A DNA stretch of 64,000 nt from positions 39,024 to 103,023 of the forward strand of contig JBMHCT010000021.1 in the NCBI GenBank assembly GCA_049889775.1, in the 5' to 3' direction. The notes beneath the pieces were generated by a model, which was not told where the DNA came from, did no database searches, and saw only the letters and a list, made by a program, of their open reading frames with translations. Shown one piece after another: positions 30,670-39,538 of this stretch (its first letter is position 1; each line of letters opens with the position of its first letter). A program made the translations under genes and the position numbers. The stretch comes from Jejuia sp. (lineage in GTDB: Bacteria > Bacteroidota > Bacteroidia > Flavobacteriales > Flavobacteriaceae).

Positions 30670-30731
30670 TTTAAATAATTTTACATAAATATACGAAAAT
30701 TAATACGTTTTATTTTGTACAAGTAGGTATT

Positions 30732-30758
30732 AAACCTTTTAGTATTTTTAAAGTCCAA
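30732..30758 (+). promoter_or_regulatory. Putative ECF-sigma promoter AAACC-N16-GTC (copy 1, upstream of ECF-1)
   Basis: TAAACCTTTT..AGTCCAATA; repeated with identical spacing at 31316-31339. Confidence 0.65.
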
Positions 30759-30774
30759 TAGAAAACGTCATTTT

Positions 30775-31317
30775 TTGACCGACGAAGCGCAATTAGTAAA
30801 ACAATTACAGTCTCCAAATCAAAGAGAAAAAGCCTTTAGAGAATTGATTACACTCTACAAGGAGCGTTTGTATTGGCATATTCGCAATATTGTAAAGTCA
30901 CATGATGATGCTGATGATGCGCTTCAAAATACATTTATTAAAGTTTACAAAAACATTCATAACTTTAAGGGAGATAGCAAATTATTTTCATGGATGTATC
31001 GTATTGCCACTAATGAATCCATTACACTTTTAAATAAGAATGCAAAACGCCTGCAAATTACTAGTGAAGAAGTACAACATTTGGCTATAAACAACTTAAC
31101 TTCCGATGTGTATTTTGAAGGTGAAGCGATTCAACTTAAATTGCAAAAAGCAATTGCAACATTACCAGAAAAACAACAATTGGTGTTTAACATGAAATAC
31201 TTTGAAGAACTAAAGTATAAAGATATCTCAGAAATTTTAGAGACTAGTGAAGGTGCTCTTAAAGCATCATACCATATTGCTGTGAAAAAAATTGAGGCCT
31301 ATTTAATTGATAATTAA
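30775..31317 (+). CDS. ECF RNA polymerase sigma factor (ECF-1)
   Basis: DADDALQNTFIKVY, FSWMYRIATN (region 2); LPEKQQLVF..YKDISEIL (region 4). Confidence 0.93.
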   Translation: MTDEAQLVKQLQSPNQREKAFRELITLYKERLYWHIRNIVKSHDDADDALQNTFIKVYKNIHNFKGDSKLFSWMYRIATNESITLLNKNAKRLQITSEEVQHLAINNLTSDVYFEGEAIQLKLQKAIATLPEKQQLVFNMKYFEELKYKDISEILETSEGALKASYHIAVKKIEAYLIDN

Positions 31318-31342
31318 ACCTTTTTGAAAAGTTAGAGTCAAA
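31316..31342 (+). promoter_or_regulatory. Putative ECF-sigma promoter AAACC-N16-GTC (copy 2, upstream of the anti-sigma gene)
   Basis: TAAACCTTTTT..AGTCAAAATA begins at the ECF-1 stop codon. Confidence 0.65.
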
Positions 31343-31350
31343 ATAAAGAC

Positions 31351-31857
31351 ATGAAAAATAAAAAGTTACATAGCATAAAAACTACCGGGTTTAAAACACC
31401 TAAAGGATATTTTGACAGTTTTGACGAACAACTTCTTCAAAAAATGAATATCGAAAGCAAATTGAATAAAACAATTTCAAGTGGTTTTAAAACGCCTGAA
31501 AATTATTTTGAAGGACTTGAAGAACGACTAATCAAGCAAGTATCCGAAGAAAAAAGCGCCAAAGTTATTTCTTTGTTTAGTAGAAAGAGTTTGGTCTACG
31601 CCTCTAGTATTGCGGCGACTGTTTTACTCCTTATCAGTTTATCGGTATTTAATAATACACCTGAATTTGATGATTTAGAAACGCAAACCGTTGAAAATTA
31701 TATTATTGATGAAAACTTTAGTTCTTATGAAATTGCTGCCTTAATTGACCAAGAGGATTTGAATGAAACTAATTTTGTAAATCATAATTTTGATGAAGAA
31801 GTCATTGCAGACTATTTATTAGAACATGCAGATATTGAATCCCTAATGATAGAATAA
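31351..31857 (+). CDS. Putative anti-sigma factor
   Basis: Two FKTP(K/E)(G/N)YF repeats, one TM helix, acidic C-terminus; directly follows the ECF gene. Confidence 0.65.
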   Translation: MKNKKLHSIKTTGFKTPKGYFDSFDEQLLQKMNIESKLNKTISSGFKTPENYFEGLEERLIKQVSEEKSAKVISLFSRKSLVYASSIAATVLLLISLSVFNNTPEFDDLETQTVENYIIDENFSSYEIAALIDQEDLNETNFVNHNFDEEVIADYLLEHADIESLMIE

Positions 31858-31859
31858 TT

Positions 31860-32300
31860 ATGAAAAAGATACTACTTATAGCGACTGTTTTACTATCTAT
31901 TACAGTAGCAGCACAACAAGACCGATGGGAAAAAATTAAAGCCCTAAAAGTTGCTTTTATTACTGAAGCTTTAGACCTAAGTGAAAAAGAGTCTCAAGAA
32001 TTTTGGCCTATTTATAATGAATTTGAAGAAGCCTCGAACAAAATACGACATCAAGAAATGCGGGCGATTCGCAATGAAATTAGAGAAAACGCCGAAGGCC
32101 TTACAGACGAAAAAGCACTTGAATTGATTAAAAAATTTAATGCCGCCGAAGAGCGCATGTACGCTTTAAGAAAAGAATTTTCTAAGAAAGTATTAACTAT
32201 TATTCCAGCAAAAAAAATTATAAAACTTAAATTAGTGGAAGAAGATTTTAAACGGAAAATGCTAAAAGAATTTCAAAAACGTAAAAAAGAAAGAGGTTAA
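31860..32300 (+). CDS. Spy/CpxP-like periplasmic protein
   Basis: Signal peptide; KIKALKVAFITEALDLSEKESQEFWPIYNEF helical pattern. Confidence 0.7.
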   Translation: MKKILLIATVLLSITVAAQQDRWEKIKALKVAFITEALDLSEKESQEFWPIYNEFEEASNKIRHQEMRAIRNEIRENAEGLTDEKALELIKKFNAAEERMYALRKEFSKKVLTIIPAKKIIKLKLVEEDFKRKMLKEFQKRKKERG

Positions 32301-32313: not shown

Positions 32314-33405
32314 TTATTCTCTAAACGTTAGTTTTGCGACTCTTCCGTATCCGGCTGCATAGGCCGTAGAATCATTTAAAAATCTTAAAGTAAAAAAACC
32401 TTCTTCGCTTAAATGTTTCCATGAATTCCCTGAATCATTGCTATAATCTATACCTTTAAAGCCAATAGCAACCAAAGCCTTTCCTTTACTATTTGGAACG
32501 TATTGCACACAACTTCTATACCCTGGGTTTTCATTTTGTGCAACCAATTCCCAAGTTTTTCCGCCATCACTAGTTCTTATCTTATTTGCAGCGTTATCAT
32601 CAGCTTTTGTATAATCACCACCTATCGCAAACCCATTAAGTTCATCATAAAAATCAATAGAATACATACCCGTTGTTTCTTTCCCTTGAATAATTGGCGT
32701 TTCGTAAACCTCCCAAGTTTCGCCTTTGTCGGGAGAGTATAAAATTCTACTAGCCTTTCCGCCAGTAGCTACCCAAGTATGATCTCCAACAATAGCAATA
32801 TTGGTATCACTCGCCGCAAAAGCTGCTTCTCCTTCAAGGGCTTTTGGTAAATCTTCACAAGACAATTTAACCCAAGAGTTGCCTCCATCTCTGGTAATAA
32901 TAATGCTCATGCAGTCTTCCGTTGGATCTCCAATGGCAATACCCTCTTCGTCATTCCAAAACTCCATGGAATCGTAAAAGGCTTTTGGGTGGATTTCCTT
33001 GTAAACAGTATCGAGAGACTCATGTGCCGCTCGAAGAAGATAAGCTGGACTTCCAATAGTCAATCCAAACTCTCCATTTTTAGTTGTCGCAACCGCTCTA
33101 TAATTCAATTCTATATTAACGCCTTTCATCTTCTCAAAATAGCCATATACTTTACTGCTATTCGACTTCTTATCTCCGTTAATACCTTCAATAATTAATC
33201 CTCCTTCCCCAACTGAACTCAAAAAAATGCATCCCTCATCATTTTTCAATAATTCCAAAGCCCTCACATTCAATAATGAATCTGTAATAAGTTCTTCAAT
33301 TTCAACTTTAGTAAAATCTTTTGGGATAAAACTAACCTCTTTTTTACATGATAAAAACAAAAGAATGACTACCAGAAATAATAATCTAAATTTCATACAA
33401 CTCAA
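32314..33405 (-). CDS. BNR/YCF48-like beta-propeller lipoprotein
   Basis: Asp-box repeats (TRDGGNSW, SPDKGETW, TSDGGKTW, SNDSGNSW); AFAASDT motif. Confidence 0.85.
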   Translation of the reverse strand: MSCMKFRLLFLVVILLFLSCKKEVSFIPKDFTKVEIEELITDSLLNVRALELLKNDEGCIFLSSVGEGGLIIEGINGDKKSNSSKVYGYFEKMKGVNIELNYRAVATTKNGEFGLTIGSPAYLLRAAHESLDTVYKEIHPKAFYDSMEFWNDEEGIAIGDPTEDCMSIIITRDGGNSWVKLSCEDLPKALEGEAAFAASDTNIAIVGDHTWVATGGKASRILYSPDKGETWEVYETPIIQGKETTGMYSIDFYDELNGFAIGGDYTKADDNAANKIRTSDGGKTWELVAQNENPGYRSCVQYVPNSKGKALVAIGFKGIDYSNDSGNSWKHLSEEGFFTLRFLNDSTAYAAGYGRVAKLTFRE

Positions 33406-33471
33406 TTTTTATAAAAATAAAAAAGCTTCGCGAACTACCACGAAGCCTTCAAAAAAAACTATCAATCAAAT

Positions 33472-34218
33472 TTACACTTCACGTTTCAAAATTTCAATAT
33501 GGCGCTTTAAACGCTCTACATCAATTTCGATAGTGCCATTGTAAACACCACGAATGTATCCCGACTTATCTACCAGAATAAAATTTTCAGTATGAATAAA
33601 ATTGCTTTCATCTTGGGTTTTGATGAAATCTTCATCAGCAAAATAGCCATGTCTTGCTATGTCGTAAAGTTTATCTTTATCACCTGTTACTAAATGCCAT
33701 TTGTTAGCATCTACATTATGTTTTTGGGCATAGTTTTGTAAAACTGGAATAGAGTCTTTCCATGGCATGACCGTATGCGAAAGTAAAATGATATCATGGT
33801 CTGTTCTATAGGTTTCTTGAATCGCCTCCATGTTTTTAGTAAGCTTTGGACAAATACCAGGACAACTTGTAAAAAAGAAATCGGCAATATATATTTTACC
33901 CTTTAGGGTAGCATTGGTAACAGCTTGACCATTTTGATTGGTAAAGGTAAACTCTGGGATTTTGTGTTTTGGCGTATTCCATTGCGGTGTAAAATCTGCA
34001 GAATTAAAGTAGGGTAATTTGGTGATTTCCGCAGAAATTGTAGTCTCGTTTGATTGATTTTTACAACTTAAAACACTAAAATAGATCAGAAATAAGAAAG
34101 CAAGAATTCTAACTATAATTCCACCAAGGGTAGGAATAATTACTAATGACCTATCTATATTTATTTTATGAGATACTGAATCAAGTTCAGTATGACATTT
34201 TTTATTACTTAATTTCAT
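33472..34218 (-). CDS. SCO1/SenC-family copper chaperone lipoprotein (start uncertain)
   Basis: DFFFTSCPGICP (CxxxC) and FIHTENF (His ligand); lipobox VLSC lies unusually far from the only upstream ATG (34218). Confidence 0.88.
   Translation of the reverse strand: MKLSNKKCHTELDSVSHKINIDRSLVIIPTLGGIIVRILAFLFLIYFSVLSCKNQSNETTISAEITKLPYFNSADFTPQWNTPKHKIPEFTFTNQNGQAVTNATLKGKIYIADFFFTSCPGICPKLTKNMEAIQETYRTDHDIILLSHTVMPWKDSIPVLQNYAQKHNVDANKWHLVTGDKDKLYDIARHGYFADEDFIKTQDESNFIHTENFILVDKSGYIRGVYNGTIEIDVERLKRHIEILKREV
34171..34196 (-). repeat. REP-like hairpin, family B, in frame in the SCO N-terminal extension
   Basis: AGATACTGAATCAAGTTCAGTATGAC; encodes CHTELDSVS on the minus strand. Confidence 0.75.
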
Positions 34219-34774
34219 CTTTGTCAACAGTTACGATGTAACATTTTTTAAGACCAATTAAACCAAAACGCTCCCCATTCACAACTTCATAATTGGCCTT
34301 AATATTCCCGTTATGTTTCCATAATTTTTGTGTCCCCAACTCCTTACCATTTTCAAAATTAAAAGCTTTAAGTGGTTGCCCCGACTCGCACCATTCATTC
34401 ATAACTCCATGGTGCTCTCCTTTTTCATTAAAATGGTATTCAAACTTTAAATTTCTATTTGGCCACCAAGACCTATGGATTCCTGTTTTATAGCCTTCAA
34501 CATAAAAGCGTTCTAAAAGTTGATCACCTGTTTTATACCAACGTATTTCTTGCCCGTGTTTTTTACCGCTCTTATACTCAATTTGAGATAGTTTTTCCCC
34601 AGTATCATAATTTGAGATTACTACGCCATCAAATTCATAACCTTGATAAAGCAAAATACCATTATGTAATGTCAGCCCTTCATCTAATGTATCCACAGTT
34701 TGGATATCAGAATTGGAATTACAATCCAAAAGTAATATTGCCAAAAGTGCGATATATAAAACACTCAACTTCAT
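34205..34774 (-). CDS. MORN-variant repeat (YwqK-like) lipoprotein
   Basis: Repeats such as YKSGKKHGQEIRWY and FENGKELGTQKLW; lipobox-like LLDC. Confidence 0.75.
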   Translation of the reverse strand: MKLSVLYIALLAILLLDCNSNSDIQTVDTLDEGLTLHNGILLYQGYEFDGVVISNYDTGEKLSQIEYKSGKKHGQEIRWYKTGDQLLERFYVEGYKTGIHRSWWPNRNLKFEYHFNEKGEHHGVMNEWCESGQPLKAFNFENGKELGTQKLWKHNGNIKANYEVVNGERFGLIGLKKCYIVTVDKDEIK

Positions 34775-35569
34775 TTATTGTGAAATGTTTCCAGGATTAC
34801 CGAAGTAACCATTTCCATTAAGGTAAGGGTCTTCACTCGTAATATGATAGTGATAAATTCCATTTGGGAAATCTGTATTGGCATGCGTATGACCATGATA
34901 AACATCTAAATCATCATTGGTAACTACCTCTCCATTTTCCATAGGCCCATACACTGGAAATCCATCTGACAAGAGTCCTAAAAAAGCATCGTCTCCAAAC
35001 GTTTCCGTAAGAAAGGTTGGTTCAATATGATAATGGTAATTATCACGTCCCGCAGGATGCCCTAAGTACTGATCAAAAGAATCAATCTCGTTGGTTAGCG
35101 GTGAACCACCCGCAGCGTATTGATTAAAAAATATCACACCATTTCGTGCAATACCAATCGGCCCCATTCCTGTGGCTTCTTTATTGTTAGCTTCCGATGG
35201 ATTTAACGTCATGGTAAACACTATATTTTGTTCACTTATTCTATTAGGGTTGATTCTAAAATTTGAATTTGTACCATTATATGGTGTATATAGCGGATTA
35301 TCTGTTGGCCAATACGGACTCTCGTGATTTGGTAAATCTGTAGTTGTAAAAGTAACAGTGTTACCATTTACGGCGTAAGTTAGTCCTGTACCTTCAAACT
35401 TTGATAAAATACCACTAATATCGTAATTGGTTTCCGTTGGCTGTTCTGTTTCTTCTTCCTCTTCTTCCTGAACCATTACATCATCGCTACTTTTGCTGCA
35501 AGCGCTTAAAAAAAATACGATTAGTAAAACGTTAAGATAATAGATAAAATTTGGTGCTAATTTTTTCAT
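34775..35569 (-). CDS. YHYH-domain lipoprotein 1
   Basis: Lipobox LSAC, LPNH, GH..NYHYH, DGFPVYGP, HGH..YHYH. Confidence 0.85.
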   Translation of the reverse strand: MKKLAPNFIYYLNVLLIVFFLSACSKSSDDVMVQEEEEEETEQPTETNYDISGILSKFEGTGLTYAVNGNTVTFTTTDLPNHESPYWPTDNPLYTPYNGTNSNFRINPNRISEQNIVFTMTLNPSEANNKEATGMGPIGIARNGVIFFNQYAAGGSPLTNEIDSFDQYLGHPAGRDNYHYHIEPTFLTETFGDDAFLGLLSDGFPVYGPMENGEVVTNDDLDVYHGHTHANTDFPNGIYHYHITSEDPYLNGNGYFGNPGNISQ

Positions 35570-35745
35570 GATTACTTTTTATAAATTCTTCAATGATCCA
35601 AACTCTGCTCTTAAAACTTACTTTGTTAAACACATATAAATCATAATAACATTTAATTTCAAGATCGTTACGGTTAATACAATAAGTATGTAACCTAGTT
35701 TACTTCGCTTAGTTTCCATGGGACATTCGATTTGGTTTATGATTT

Positions 35746-35774
35746 TAGATGCGTCTTTTTAAAAAAACTTGCGC
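35746..35774 (-). promoter_or_regulatory. Putative ECF-2 promoter GCAAG-N15-GCATC (copy upstream of YHYH-1)
   Basis: Minus strand GCGCAAGTTTTTTTAAAAAGACGCATCTA; one of four copies with identical spacing. Confidence 0.75.
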
Positions 35775-35789
35775 ACTACAATTAAAAAA

Positions 35790-36914
35790 TCATTCTCTTC
35801 TTCGTTGTCCAAGATTTGGGGGTTGCATCTGCTGTAATTCCAACTCAATTATAAACCCATCATTATTCTTGTCCACATCACCAAATCTTGAAGCCAAAGG
35901 CCCTCTTGCCTCTGATTTAGAAATTTTTCCATCATTATTGTTGTCCATATTCTCCATTAACTGCGTTAGTGTTGGCCTACCTCTTCTTTCGTTTGTTGAA
36001 ACTTCTCCCATTAAACATCTACTAACATAAGGAAATTCATCAGTAACTAAGTAAATATAATTTCCATCTAAATTAATACCGTTACATTCGTCTAAATCTC
36101 CCGAACCTTCAACAAACTCAAAATCAGATGTATATGTGCCATCATGATGTCCTCCAATTGAAATATCTCTAGAACTGCGTCTTGTTTCGTAAGTACAATC
36201 TTCTCCTTCTCTATTTCCTCCCAATAATTTATAACTTGGTTTGTACATACCACTTTTAGAATAGTATATAGGAAAACCATCAAGGGCAAACCCAACATGC
36301 ACCAAATCTTCACCAGTATCAAAACTCTCTACTACAGATGTTGGTGTTCCATGATAATGATAAGCTCCCGAAGGTTGCACATGCGCATTGTTAAAATCTA
36401 AACCCAGATTAATCATATTCTGAAACGCTTCAACTCTATAGTTCTCACCGGTATCACACTCCACAACCTCAGCAGTTCCAGGTTCAAACTTTACGCCATT
36501 TAAAGCTACTCCTGGTTCTCTAACCCAATTTGGCACTCCAATATATTTCGGATTTAAAGGAAATGAATAGGTTTTATTTTGTGCAGAAATAGTATTTGGA
36601 TTTCCCGGACCTGGAAACTCACCGGTTTCATGATTAGGTAAGGCATTTGTAACCATAGTTCGGACATTACCAGTAATTTTTACTATGGTACGTGTTCCAA
36701 AACCCTTATCTTCAAGCGTATATGCTCCAAAATAATCATTTGTCTCTTTTGAAACCTCAATGCCTTTATGCTTGTGCGAATGAGAATTCCCATCATGGGT
36801 ATGATACTCATCATGATCATGTACGTGTCCATGTGCGCTAGAACTTTTATGCATATGGCATCCCATAAACGTTAATAAGATGGCAAATCCCAAGAGTTCT
36901 ATAATTGTTTTCAT
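35790..36914 (-). CDS. YHYH-domain lipoprotein 2 with His-rich N-terminus and two C-terminal EF-hands
   Basis: Lipobox FMGC; HGHVHDHDEYHTHDGNSHSHKH; AHVQPSGAYHYHG; DGFPIY; DNNNDGKISKSE and DKNNDGFIIELE. Confidence 0.85.
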   Translation of the reverse strand: MKTIIELLGFAILLTFMGCHMHKSSSAHGHVHDHDEYHTHDGNSHSHKHKGIEVSKETNDYFGAYTLEDKGFGTRTIVKITGNVRTMVTNALPNHETGEFPGPGNPNTISAQNKTYSFPLNPKYIGVPNWVREPGVALNGVKFEPGTAEVVECDTGENYRVEAFQNMINLGLDFNNAHVQPSGAYHYHGTPTSVVESFDTGEDLVHVGFALDGFPIYYSKSGMYKPSYKLLGGNREGEDCTYETRRSSRDISIGGHHDGTYTSDFEFVEGSGDLDECNGINLDGNYIYLVTDEFPYVSRCLMGEVSTNERRGRPTLTQLMENMDNNNDGKISKSEARGPLASRFGDVDKNNDGFIIELELQQMQPPNLGQRRRE

Positions 36915-36928
36915 AATGCTATGATTAA

Positions 36929-37480
36929 TTAGTTTCTAGGTTGTTGTGGTCTTCTTCTTTTATTTCTTTCAAAAAATGCCTTTAGCTCCTCAAGACTAAG
37001 TTTTTCATCTTCATTTTTATCAATAACCTTAAATTGTTTTAATAATCGGTTATATTTTTTCAGACTCAATTCCTCTTCAGTTAATACACCATCTTTATCC
37101 TTATCAGCTTTTTTAATTAACTTTTCTAGATCAACATTTTGCGATCTTCTATTCTCAAAGAATAGCTCTAGCTCTTCTAAACCAATAAAGCCATCTTCAT
37201 TTAAATCTATAATATCAAAATCCTCGGCTAACCTCCCCCGTTCTGCCTGTTCAGCTTCTTTTTCACTTATTTTACCATCATCATCTGTATCCAGTCGCTC
37301 TATTATTTGTTCTGCACTTGGGCGTTCTCGTTGCGCATTCCCATTTTGCCCACCAGGGCGTCCCTGTCCGTTTCTTCCTCCCTGTCCACCTGGAGGTTCA
37401 CCCATACCTTGCGCAAAGGTCCCTAAACACAATAACAACGAAAATATGCTGATACTTACTTTTAAATTCTTATGTCTCAT
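36929..37480 (-). CDS. Secreted four-EF-hand calcium-binding protein
   Basis: Signal peptide, G/Q-rich linker, loops DTDDDGKISEKE, DLNEDGFIGLEE, DKDKDGVLTEEE and DKNEDEKLSLEE. Confidence 0.85.
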   Translation of the reverse strand: MRHKNLKVSISIFSLLLCLGTFAQGMGEPPGGQGGRNGQGRPGGQNGNAQRERPSAEQIIERLDTDDDGKISEKEAEQAERGRLAEDFDIIDLNEDGFIGLEELELFFENRRSQNVDLEKLIKKADKDKDGVLTEEELSLKKYNRLLKQFKVIDKNEDEKLSLEELKAFFERNKRRRPQQPRN

Positions 37481-37509
37481 CTTTTAATGTTTTTTTGGAT
37501 TATACCTTT

Positions 37510-37540
37510 TGGATGCTGACTTGAAAAAAAACTTGTGCGC
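37510..37540 (-). promoter_or_regulatory. Putative ECF-2 promoter (copy upstream of the EF-hand gene)
   Basis: Minus strand GCGCACAAGTTTTTTTTCAAGTCAGCATCCA; ACAAG-N15-GCATC. Confidence 0.7.
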
Positions 37541-37567
37541 TCTTGTGTTAAAAAAATCCCAAATAAA

Positions 37568-37592
37568 AAACGCCCTAAATTAGAGCGTTCTT
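37568..37592 (-). terminator. Terminator after the Spy-like gene
   Basis: AACGC(C/T)CTAA-TTAGAGCGTT hairpin with a T-run on the minus strand. Confidence 0.6.
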
Positions 37593-37606
37593 TAAATTAG
37601 TAGTTT

Positions 37607-38170
37607 TTAGTGATGTGGAGGTGGTAAACCATCTCCAGACATATCATTAGGTCTTGGTCTGGGTGGTCTTTCTCCATGTTTTGGCACTTCGTGCGGCATC
37701 CTTTGAGGCCTTCCTTCTATCCTTATTGCGTAATTAATTATTTTACTGAACTTTTCCTTCTGTTTCTCATCGCATAATTTTTGTACCTCTTTAAAATGGT
37801 GAAAAGTTAAAATATCTTTTTGCTTTTCTTTTTCACCAATTAAATTAGCTAAAGAATCAATAGTATTAGCACTAAAATAATTATCTGACAAACCATTATA
37901 CAAAGCATCTTTCAACTCACGTATACCATCCAAAACCTCTCTCATTGCAGGTCGATTAGCTTTAGTCAACGCCCTGTATTTTTCTTTTTGTAACTCATTA
38001 AAATCTAACTCCTTAACCAAAAAATGCTCCGACCGTTTATGCTTTTTACTATTTTGATTTTCGCTATTATAAATAGGCTTTTCTCTATTTCCTAAATAAT
38101 TATATAAGAAGAAACAATTCACTATAATTAAGAAAATAAGTAATACATATAAGATTAAATTTTTATTCAC
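37607..38170 (-). CDS. Spy/CpxP-like (periplasmic heavy-metal-sensor type) protein
   Basis: N-terminal TM/signal, FLVKELDFNELQKEKY, HFKEVQKLCDEKQKEKF, Pro/His-rich tail. Confidence 0.7.
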   Translation of the reverse strand: MNKNLILYVLLIFLIIVNCFFLYNYLGNREKPIYNSENQNSKKHKRSEHFLVKELDFNELQKEKYRALTKANRPAMREVLDGIRELKDALYNGLSDNYFSANTIDSLANLIGEKEKQKDILTFHHFKEVQKLCDEKQKEKFSKIINYAIRIEGRPQRMPHEVPKHGERPPRPRPNDMSGDGLPPPHH

Positions 38171-38176
38171 GATGAT

Positions 38177-38497
38177 CTAATTTAAAATTGATTTATACTC
38201 ATAACTGCTGGACAAACCATATGATTCAGCAAACTCAGTAACGTCTTCATCATAGGTAGATGTTGCCTCTAACTTGGTAAAAGCTATCACGTTTAAAATG
38301 ATTACACAAGCCAAAATAGCCAATTGCAATTTCGGCGTAAACCAAGACCACACCGTTTGCATTTTCTCCTCTTTTTCGGCAAACAAAATATTCATTGTTT
38401 TATCCTTAAAAAACGGAGACACAGTAACAGTTTCCATATTGTCCAAGACGTTTAGGGTCTCGTCAATTTCTTTTTGTAGGTTGCTATTTATATCCAT
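38177..38497 (-). CDS. Putative anti-sigma factor
   Basis: VSPFFKDKTM motif, single TM helix, directly downstream of ECF-2. Confidence 0.6.
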   Translation of the reverse strand: MDINSNLQKEIDETLNVLDNMETVTVSPFFKDKTMNILFAEKEEKMQTVWSWFTPKLQLAILACVIILNVIAFTKLEATSTYDEDVTEFAESYGLSSSYEYKSILN

Positions 38498-38507
38498 ATC
38501 AAATATT

Positions 38508-38536
38508 TAGATGCACAAAACTTCAAAAACTTGCGC
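38508..38536 (-). promoter_or_regulatory. Putative ECF-2 promoter (copy between the sigma and anti-sigma genes)
   Basis: Minus strand GCGCAAGTTTTTGAAGTTTTGTGCATCTA, starting at the ECF-2 stop codon. Confidence 0.75.
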
Positions 38537-39114
38537 TACTTATCATTTTTATAAAAATTTTCTAAAAGCTTCTGTAAATTCTTTTTTGCTCGAAACATTA
38601 GAGATTCTACCGAAGACACGCTTTTATCGATAATATCACTAATTTCCTGATAACTTTTCCCGTCTACTTTATGTAATGTAAACACCACTTTTTGTGCCTC
38701 GGGCAATTGATTAATTGCGTAAAACAGCGCCTCGCTCTTCTCTTTATTCTCCAAAATAATCCCGGGATGGTTCATCTCGGTAAAATAGTCGGTTTTATCC
38801 ACTGGAACCTCATTCCCCAAAATCGATTGCATAAAACCAAACCGTTTTTTTGTATTGCGTTTCCTAATAAATTCCAAACATTTATTGGTAGTAATTCGGT
38901 AAATCCAAGTAGATAATTTCGAGTTCCCCTTAAACTTCCCAATACTATTAAACACTTCTACAAATACCTCTTGCGCAATATCCTCGGCATCCTCTTTGTT
39001 GGGAACGAAGGATATGCAAGTAGCAAAAACTTTCTGCTGAAAATCATCCAACAACTTCCCATACGCACTCGCGTTATGGTTTTTAAGTCCCGCTATAAAT
39101 TCGTTTTCTGTCAA
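38536..39114 (-). CDS. ECF RNA polymerase sigma factor (ECF-2)
   Basis: DAEDIAQEVFVEVF, LSTWIYRITTN, LPEAQKVVFTL..SYQEIS; TTG start. Confidence 0.93.
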   Translation of the reverse strand: MTENEFIAGLKNHNASAYGKLLDDFQQKVFATCISFVPNKEDAEDIAQEVFVEVFNSIGKFKGNSKLSTWIYRITTNKCLEFIRKRNTKKRFGFMQSILGNEVPVDKTDYFTEMNHPGIILENKEKSEALFYAINQLPEAQKVVFTLHKVDGKSYQEISDIIDKSVSSVESLMFRAKKNLQKLLENFYKNDK

Positions 39115-39156: not shown

Positions 39157-39206
39157 AATTTCAATCGAAACATCAAAGCTACGCTTTGATGAAAGCTTTT
39201 TCAGTT

Positions 39207-39235
39207 TAGATGCTTTAAAAATTTGAAACTTGCGC
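39207..39235 (-). promoter_or_regulatory. Putative ECF-2 autoregulatory promoter
   Basis: Minus strand GCGCAAGTTTCAAATTTTTAAAGCATCTA; GCAAG-N15-GCATC. Confidence 0.75.
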
Positions 39236-39254: not shown

Positions 39255-39388
39255 GGACGTTACCCTCTCGGGTCGGGCTTTACTCATTGGTTCATATTTC
39301 AAATTAATGAAATCGTGAATGTAAACATTTCACTACTCAATCCCTCCTATCGTCGGGGATTTCAAACATACCGTTCAATCCCTAACGC
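39255..39388 (+). repeat. MITE-like element family A, copy 2 (with ~47-bp internal insert)
   Basis: GGACGTTACCC..GGGTCGGGCTTT and the same internal TTTCACTACTCAATCCCTCC..CAATCCCTAACGC as copy 1. Confidence 0.85.
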
Positions 39389-39538
39389 ACTTCTCCACTA
39401 GCTTCCGTGGCCAACCAAAAATAAAACCACATTAGCAAACAAAAAGCAATGTAATCAATAAAACTCAACATTTTAAACAATTAAACAAATCCACAATTCC
39501 ACATTTTAAACGTACCTTTGCCCCCTCAATAAAACAAA

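Follow-up and report, generated by a model that had tools for sequence, protein, structure and literature searches.

CnrYXH of Cupriavidus metallidurans combines an extracytoplasmic function (ECF) sigma factor, a single-pass anti-sigma factor of about 100 amino acids (aa) and a membrane-anchored periplasmic protein of the CpxP/CnrX type (LTXXQ/PF13801) with an autoregulated promoter, and in the ECF classification 2.0 the groups ECF281 and ECF290 have a heavy-metal-resistance protein at +2 (PMC7826278). Among described systems that handle copper, the mtoX-SCO1/senC-mauG operon specifies a periplasmic oxidase that contains both Cu and Ca, the Cu being bound by four His (PMC5739008); the Sco/SCO1/SenC chaperones of cytochrome c oxidase, such as B. 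subtilis Sco/YpmQ (1XZO, 1ON4), have a thioredoxin fold, a CxxxC motif and a distal His; and MbnP binds Cu via a kynurenine that is made by MbnH (7L6G; PMC11951088). Here we compare with these systems a gene cluster of Jejuia sp., found in a 64,000-nt stretch of contig JBMHCT010000021.1 that we call the window. An earlier note on this DNA had described eight co-oriented genes as a candidate metal-handling system, and eight minus-strand open reading frames (ORFs) do occupy positions 33472-39114. The regulatory half of the cluster is a new CnrYXH-like member: beside an ECF sigma factor it has a tiny putative anti-sigma factor and a periplasmic member of the CpxP/CnrX superfamily. For the effector half, YHYH-MORN-SCO, no counterpart has been described. 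We read the whole as a copper module in which a YHYH protein is the partner of SCO, and we assign this reading a probability of roughly one half.

The ECF regulon and its predicted promoter

We assigned families by Pfam and NCBIfam matches, and we compared the cluster with 80 related loci from about 20 genera and, separately, with a phylum sample of 251 Bacteroidota genomes. The sigma gene (38536-39114, minus strand, as are all features of the cluster) encodes a 192-aa ECF (group 4) sigma-70 factor with regions sigma-2 and sigma-4 only, as in the ECF family (Sigma70_r2, PF04542; Sigma70_r4_2, PF08281), which scores 103.5 bits against TIGR02937 of NCBIfam, where the cut-off is 42.9. Its orthologues in at least 50 related loci are 70-96% identical. 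The next gene (38177-38497) encodes a protein of 106 aa with one hydrophobic span, LQLAILACVIILNVIAF. It matched no family in Pfam or NCBIfam, and we call it a putative anti-sigma factor by position and size: a candidate of this kind stands at +1 from the sigma gene in 51 loci, always with a length of 98-108 aa. The third gene (37607-38170) encodes a CpxP/Spy/CnrX-like membrane-anchored protein with a Pro-rich tail, a candidate periplasmic sensor or modulator. The LTXXQ match of the window copy (E 2e-3) is under the curated cut-off; LTXXQ was matched by 26 of 33 orthologues and Metal_resist (PF13801) by 18 of the 33 (E <= 0.1, best 7e-6). At one position of this protein the window copy (KANRPAMR) has Asn where at least 90% of the aligned sequences, from 32 orthologues and the LTXXQ2 paralogue, have His; the Jejuia copy described below reads KHHRRMR.

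The upstream regions of the sigma gene and of two genes farther along the cluster, EF4 and YHYH2, have in common a 31-nt two-box motif, GCRCAAGTTT-N12-RCATCYAAA. When we scanned the 3.65-Mb assembly allowing up to two mismatches, the motif occurred exactly four times, in every case within the cluster, on the coding strand and upstream of genes; a relaxed motif with 12 specified bases again returned just those four sites, and a reversed control pattern had 0 matches in the same genome. Copy 1 (39205-39235; GCGCAAGTTT-N12-GCATCTAAA) is upstream of the sigma gene, a position that is kept in at least 28 related loci, and therefore autoregulation is implied. Copy 2 (38506-38536) lies between the sigma stop and the anti-sigma start, and the anti-sigma gene is preceded by the motif in 49 related loci. 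Copy 3 (37508-37538) is upstream of EF4, and copy 4 (35744-35774) overlaps the end of YHYH1, 175 nt ahead of YHYH2, before which the motif is found in 43 related loci. Across the comparison set there were 237 forward occurrences and 1 reverse, with the consensus AGCGCAAGTTTTT...gCATCTAAA, located upstream of sigma, anti-sigma, EF-hand, YHYH1, YHYH2 and accessory genes. The co-regulation that the earlier note had claimed is supported by these four genome-unique promoter copies and by the conservation of motif position and strand across genera.

An intrinsic terminator, a 13-bp stem followed by a T-run (33421-33450), closes the cluster after the SCO gene, and a possible terminator hairpin with a T-run follows the LTXXQ gene (37560-37595; read by eye and unflagged by the rule-based scan). 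On the basis of the promoter copies and these two terminators, we recognise three units: sigma/anti-sigma/LTXXQ, EF4/YHYH1 and YHYH2/MORN/SCO. We are highly confident that they form a real, conserved and self-contained ECF regulon.

In the mechanism that we propose, the cluster would be the complete local regulon of one ECF sigma factor, with its three units served by four copies of one promoter. An envelope signal would be sensed via the small putative anti-sigma factor in the membrane together with the CpxP/CnrX-like protein anchored there, leading to release of the sigma factor; freed, it would amplify its own operon and induce the exported proteins, with predicted transcript starts 6-8 nt past the CATCTAAA box. 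The likeness to CnrYXH lies in the ECF sigma factor, the putative single-pass anti-sigma factor of similar size, the membrane-anchored periplasmic protein and an autoregulated promoter, which is here predicted from the position of the motif. Unlike CnrYXH, the genes are ordered sigma/anti-sigma/sensor instead of cnrY-cnrX-cnrH, and neither this genome nor any of the 80 loci has efflux genes behind the motif.

A dedicated SCO paralogue and its YHYH neighbours

The last gene of the cluster (33472-34227) encodes an SCO1/SenC-family protein (PF02630, 2.5e-25, 89.4 bits, cut-off 22.8) whose CPGIC motif and the His of HTENF (C122, C126 and H212) are invariant in 53 sequences. It aligns to B. subtilis Sco (1xzo), covering the Cu ligands, and to 4hde, and its matches to Redoxin and AhpC-TSA are weak. 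Three SCO genes are present in the genome: the cluster copy, one in a ctaB-cox3-cox4 cluster on another contig and one beside rseP. In a maximum-likelihood tree of 89 SCO domains, the YHYH-linked copies (67/67) form one clade, with support of 99/93 and in 98% of bootstrap trees, that is separate from the oxidase-linked copies and the other paralogues of the same genomes. The clade divides into two subclades, one of which holds the window SCO, and the clade nearest to it is another paralogue without cox linkage. No oxidase genes adjoin the cluster. The view that this SCO does not serve cytochrome oxidase, implied by the earlier note, gains from the separate paralogue clade and from the location of the oxidase-linked copy on another contig. 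The protein resembles the oxidase chaperones in its thioredoxin fold, its CxxxC and distal His and, as in B. subtilis Sco, a membrane tether by lipid or signal anchor; unlike them, its clade never adjoins cox genes, and the client that we propose, YHYH2, lacks CuA-type Cys ligands.

What the clade does adjoin is a particular kind of YHYH gene. YHYH2-MORN-SCO is present in 54 of the 80 loci, the sigma trio in 50 and both in 45. In the phylum sample, YHYH is present in 33 genomes, and SCO lies about 1 kb downstream of 14 of the 18 short (~260-aa) YHYH genes; no long YHYH gene in that sample has a downstream SCO. These counts bear out the co-occurrence of YHYH, MORN and SCO that had been suggested, with a different partner from the one first proposed: SCO had been suggested to serve the His-rich YHYH proteins, and it goes with the YHYH2 subfamily, which is short and Cys-free, and not with the His-rich YHYH1. 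Among the sampled marine Flavobacteriaceae, the order is rsmB, sigma, anti-sigma, LTXXQ, a variable insert of 0-6 kb, EF4, YHYH1, YHYH2, MORN, SCO, a BNR gene and then a second, convergent ECF trio. Loci from other Bacteroidota orders and classes have sigma, anti-sigma, LTXXQ, YHYH2 (1-2 copies), MORN and SCO. Because this six-gene core recurs in other orders and classes, we consider it old, and EF4 and the EF-hand-bearing, His-rich YHYH1 are later additions to the same regulon in marine Flavobacteriaceae. In one large other Bacteroidota family (loci L101, L102 and L105), a YHYH gene of ~340-370 aa is found between frr and pyrH/tsf.

Very few clients of SCO are known apart from cytochrome oxidase. 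As a dedicated SCO clade is locked to one protein family across the phylum, YHYH is a concrete candidate for such a client.

The YHYH2 lipoprotein (34775-35569; PF14240, 2e-15, 57.7 bits, cut-off 25) is 264 aa long and contains two YHYH motifs; its sole Cys is that of the lipobox. The gene that follows it (34205-34774), with a start codon immediately after the YHYH2 stop, encodes a 189-aa MORN_2-repeat lipoprotein, in which the lipobox C18 and C178 are conserved. The MORN_2 (PF07661) match is 20 bits here, under the gathering score of 29.6, and 50-57 bits in orthologues from the same slot (best 57.6). The MORN and SCO genes share 14-23 nt, at the end of the former and the start of the latter. 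Possible SCO start codons in the window are limited to TTG 34227 and ATG 34218, and about 35 residues precede the lipobox (window 34092-34227), as they do in the Jejuia relative; orthologue starts lie ~17-25 residues ahead of the lipobox Cys. For this reason, the lipoprotein status of SCO is less certain here than in the orthologues.

The YHYH1 lipoprotein (35790-36914) has a His-rich linker (HGHVHDHDEYHTHDGNSHSHKH), a YHYH domain (PF14240, 6e-52, 176.9 bits, cut-off 25) and two C-terminal EF-hand loops (PF13202, 26.5 bits, cut-off 25.9). An HSH-type His-rich linker with at least three His is found in 70 of 80 YHYH1 orthologues. Neither YHYH protein has a family match besides PF14240 and EF-hand. 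Residues invariant across the YHYH1 and YHYH2 types are the His of a PNH motif, the His before the motif, Y-H-Y-H and three Asp, and in YHYH2 the invariant positions are H82, D166, H171, Y178, H179, Y180, H181, D202 and D222. The same picture holds among 149 diverse YHYH representatives, in which four His, four Asp and four Tyr, including Y-H-Y-H, are 98-100% conserved. The family is large, with about 5,500 clusters at 50% identity among 1.8 billion representative proteins.

The AlphaFold2 (AF2) model of YHYH1 residues 50-310 is confident (pLDDT 85.4, pTM 0.85) and all-beta, with the HxH pair of the motif on a strand. Foldseek found no relative of this model in the PDB (best E 0.49, TM <= 0.15), and sequence searches of the PDB with a single YHYH sequence and with a profile gave noise only. 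Against BFVD, matches were limited to YHYH proteins of cyanophages and giant viruses (cyanophage E 6e-11). A model of YHYH2, made from a 66-row alignment, had a pLDDT of 50; we set it aside and did not use it for fold comparison. The family, which reaches cyanophages, giant viruses and diatoms, has no solved structure. A report on it states that it lacks metal-binding or enzymatic characterisation (bioRxiv 10.64898/2026.10.18.759936), and in the literature on YHYH, PF14240 and ECF factors with LTXXQ we found no study of the module.

Copper and the competing explanations

In our proposal the YHYH proteins would be the effectors of the regulon, all-beta proteins with a centre of four His plus Asp and Tyr. 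The centre most likely binds a transition metal, and copper seems to us the likeliest one. The dedicated SCO paralogue, with the MORN lipoprotein as a possible adaptor, would load or redox-service the short YHYH2, a role that may be likened to that of SCO1/SenC in serving the copper enzyme MtoX. As in the mtoX operon, an exported enzyme candidate with four conserved His stands beside a dedicated non-oxidase SCO, sister YHYH clusters include a MauG-like di-heme enzyme, and the Ca of MtoX has a parallel in the EF-hands of YHYH1. The two are alike in the logic of the operon and in nothing more: YHYH and the SBP56/MtoX fold are not related, with no match between them in Pfam or the PDB, the gene of a MORN lipoprotein comes between YHYH2 and SCO, and control is by an ECF sigma factor here and by an IclR-type regulator for mtoX.

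The case for copper is strengthened by loci from other Bacteroidota families. In two of these (L100 and L103), sigma homologues with 39-44% identity and homologues of the LTXXQ gene precede genes for MbnP (PF20243, 1e-41 and 1e-38), for a di-heme enzyme of the MbnH family and for a YHYH protein of the long type, which is secreted by the type IX secretion system (T9SS). MbnP adjoins YHYH in 5 sampled genomes, and one flavobacterial locus (L058) has an MbnH-like gene behind the same promoter motif, directly ahead of YHYH1. Because the MbnP/MbnH pair sits between the sigma/LTXXQ genes and the YHYH gene, it occupies the slot of MORN-SCO. It differs from the arrangement in the window in being outside this cluster, the only MbnP of the genome being on another contig, and in having the long T9SS-secreted type of YHYH as its partner. 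A further variant (L096) has a sigma gene, small anti-sigma- and LTXXQ-like ORFs (identified by eye), a YHYH gene and a DUF6702-like gene. Across the SCO, MbnP/MbnH and L096 variants, the regulator and YHYH are thus the constant parts, and the metal-handling partners vary. The earlier suggestion of copper gains independent support at the genome level from the MbnP-MbnH-YHYH sets that stand under homologous sigma/LTXXQ genes.

A bolder form of the copper reading would make YHYH (PF14240) an unrecognised family of extracytoplasmic copper enzymes, its fold without a solved relative, whose His4/Tyr/Asp centre is matured by lineage-swapped partners, either SCO aided by MORN as an adaptor or MbnP together with a di-heme enzyme of the MauG type. 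Such a centre may include a protein-derived Tyr or Trp cofactor. We regard this as a tentative suggestion, possible and on balance improbable; if it were true, the same catalytic domain would be used by cyanophage tails, giant viruses and diatoms.

The same copper links could be read in terms of acquisition. YHYH would then not be an enzyme and would capture copper at the surface, as MopE, CorA and MbnP do, with MORN and SCO passing it, at times when seawater offers little copper, to respiratory oxidases or further cuproproteins. The His-rich linkers of YHYH1 are of a capture type, every component is a lipoprotein or is exported, the genes of YHYH keep company with those of MbnP/MbnH, a pair that has been linked to copper uptake (PMC3621798), and the nearest SCO clade is the paralogue without cox linkage. 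We nevertheless think such a relay distinctly unlikely: neither the cluster nor the DNA behind the motif in any locus contains a transporter of the TonB-dependent or inner-membrane kind, the conserved set of four His plus Asp, Tyr, Arg and Glu resembles a catalytic centre more than a transfer site, and the genome already has a cox-linked SCO.

Several observations weigh against copper, or against parts of the proposed mechanism. The LTXXQ/CnrX-like alignment shows just one near-invariant His, replaced by Asn in the window copy, and, unlike in CnrYXH, the metal ligands of CnrX are not conserved. Direct, CnrX-style sensing of a metal is therefore doubtful, and with the CnrX-type ligand set missing and the window His lost, the inducing signal may be envelope damage and not a metal. 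Judged by the autoregulatory position and the conservation of the sites, the sigma factor presumably uses the motif. At the level of sequence nothing separates Cu from Zn and Ni, His-rich tails and HxH motifs included. None of the loci examined contains a classical copper gene (CopA, CusABC, cupredoxin, PCuAC); CotH (30 loci), VTC, Cthe_2159 and EF-hands, which we describe below, do not fit a simple copper model; and the long YHYH genes in a housekeeping context have no sigma, SCO or MbnP neighbour. Finally, the YHYH literature that we found consists of predictions, with no experiments, and these favour zinc: a Zn-dependent hydrolase is predicted for YHYH, whose domain occurs in phage tail and baseplate proteins (PMC7824862), and a three-His zinc site is predicted elsewhere (bioRxiv 10.64898/2026.10.18.759936).

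These predictions suggest an alternative in which the cluster is a general envelope-stress regulon, the YHYH proteins, as Zn-dependent hydrolases, cleave a polymer of the cell wall or the surface, and SCO is a thioredoxin-like thiol-disulfide oxidoreductase, acting for example on the C-terminal Cys of the MORN protein, and not a copper chaperone. The structural match to YHYH proteins of cyanophages agrees with the phage-tail context, the CpxP/Spy chaperone superfamily includes the product of the third regulatory gene, the MORN protein has one conserved Cys outside its lipobox, and the thioredoxin fold of SCO and its weak Redoxin and AhpC-TSA matches would suit an oxidoreductase. All three copper ligands of SCO are nevertheless invariant, and YHYH2, being Cys-free apart from the lipobox, offers no Cys as a target, which makes a purely thiol-redox role of SCO on YHYH2 unlikely. 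Zinc hydrolysis also leaves the link of YHYH to MbnP and MauG-like enzymes unexplained. We consider this alternative unlikely and retain the copper module as our preferred reading.

Whichever metal is involved, the cluster offers a convenient experimental handle, with a sigma/anti-sigma switch, four defined promoters and small soluble lipoproteins, in a host group, the marine Flavobacteriaceae, that is abundant. If it does not handle copper, it is still a cleanly delimited and conserved ECF circuit, useful but ordinary.

Accessory genes and neighbouring elements

The EF4 gene (36929-37480) encodes a secreted protein of 183 aa with four canonical DxDxDG-type loops (EF-hand_7, PF13499, 66.2 bits, cut-off 30). 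We ruled out its identification as lanmodulin: the NF053806 score is 28.2 bits against a cut-off of 135, and position 2 of the loops is never Pro.

In related loci the variable inserts, often behind the motif, include CotH kinase-like genes (30 loci), DUF6090, DUF6702-like, Cthe_2159 and VTC genes and, once, the MbnH-family di-heme enzyme. CotH examples are L009:8406-9863, L026:5863-8646 and L012:13653-15965, and some CotH proteins combine a lamin-tail domain with a tail for T9SS sorting. A few loci have CotH accompanied by VTC, a transmembrane protein and Cthe_2159; the transmembrane protein found with VTC is one that we take to be DUF4956. CotH, VTC, this transmembrane protein and Cthe_2159 are absent from the window and from the Jejuia relative.

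These inserts raise the prospect of a calcium/phosphate surface system, built on EF-hands, CotH-type secreted kinases and VTC polyphosphate domains that would have calcium or polyphosphate as their target, in which YHYH would be a Ca-dependent enzyme and SCO incidental. The ORFs behind the motif in relatives include 48 with EF-hands and 18 CotH ORFs, as well as VTC and Cthe_2159, and EF-hands are fused to YHYH1 itself. Such a system is nonetheless very improbable, as EF-hand, CotH and VTC genes are missing from the ancient six-gene core in other classes, the window is without CotH and VTC, and of all partners SCO has the tightest linkage.

Of the public genomes, the one nearest to ours is a Jejuia metagenome-assembled genome, with identical gene order and 81-96% identity; the exception is the LTXXQ gene, with a tblastn identity of 52%. 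The leader between promoter copy 4 and YHYH2 (35570-35744) is 175 nt long in the Jejuia/Algibacter subclade and often 15-60 nt in the other subclade, and an Rfam scan of it returned nothing. The leader of the sigma gene contains a 9-bp hairpin (39171-39191), detected in a terminator-like scan. As for riboswitches or known small RNAs, Rfam gave for the leaders just a sub-threshold FtrB match that overlaps this hairpin (E 0.059, 30.5 bits, gathering score 66), which is probably due to chance.

Downstream of SCO there is a syntenic gene for a BNR/Ycf48-like lipoprotein (32314-33405). We did not count it in the regulon: it lies beyond the terminator, has no promoter motif and is kept in loci without YHYH2-MORN-SCO. 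Convergent to the cluster is a second, paralogous ECF trio of sigma, anti-sigma and LTXXQ-like genes (30775-32300, plus strand), which has its own motif, TAAACCTTT-N12-AGTCNAA, with copies before the sigma gene (30731-30758) and before the anti-sigma gene (31315-31342) that are conserved in relatives. Because two more exact copies are found elsewhere in the genome (C15:26273 and C43:40608), the regulon of this second trio extends beyond the window. On the other side of the cluster, a GC-rich element (39328-39389, about 62 nt) that separates rsmB from the sigma promoter is a dispersed repeat, with at least 25 copies, 78-98% identical, on many contigs.

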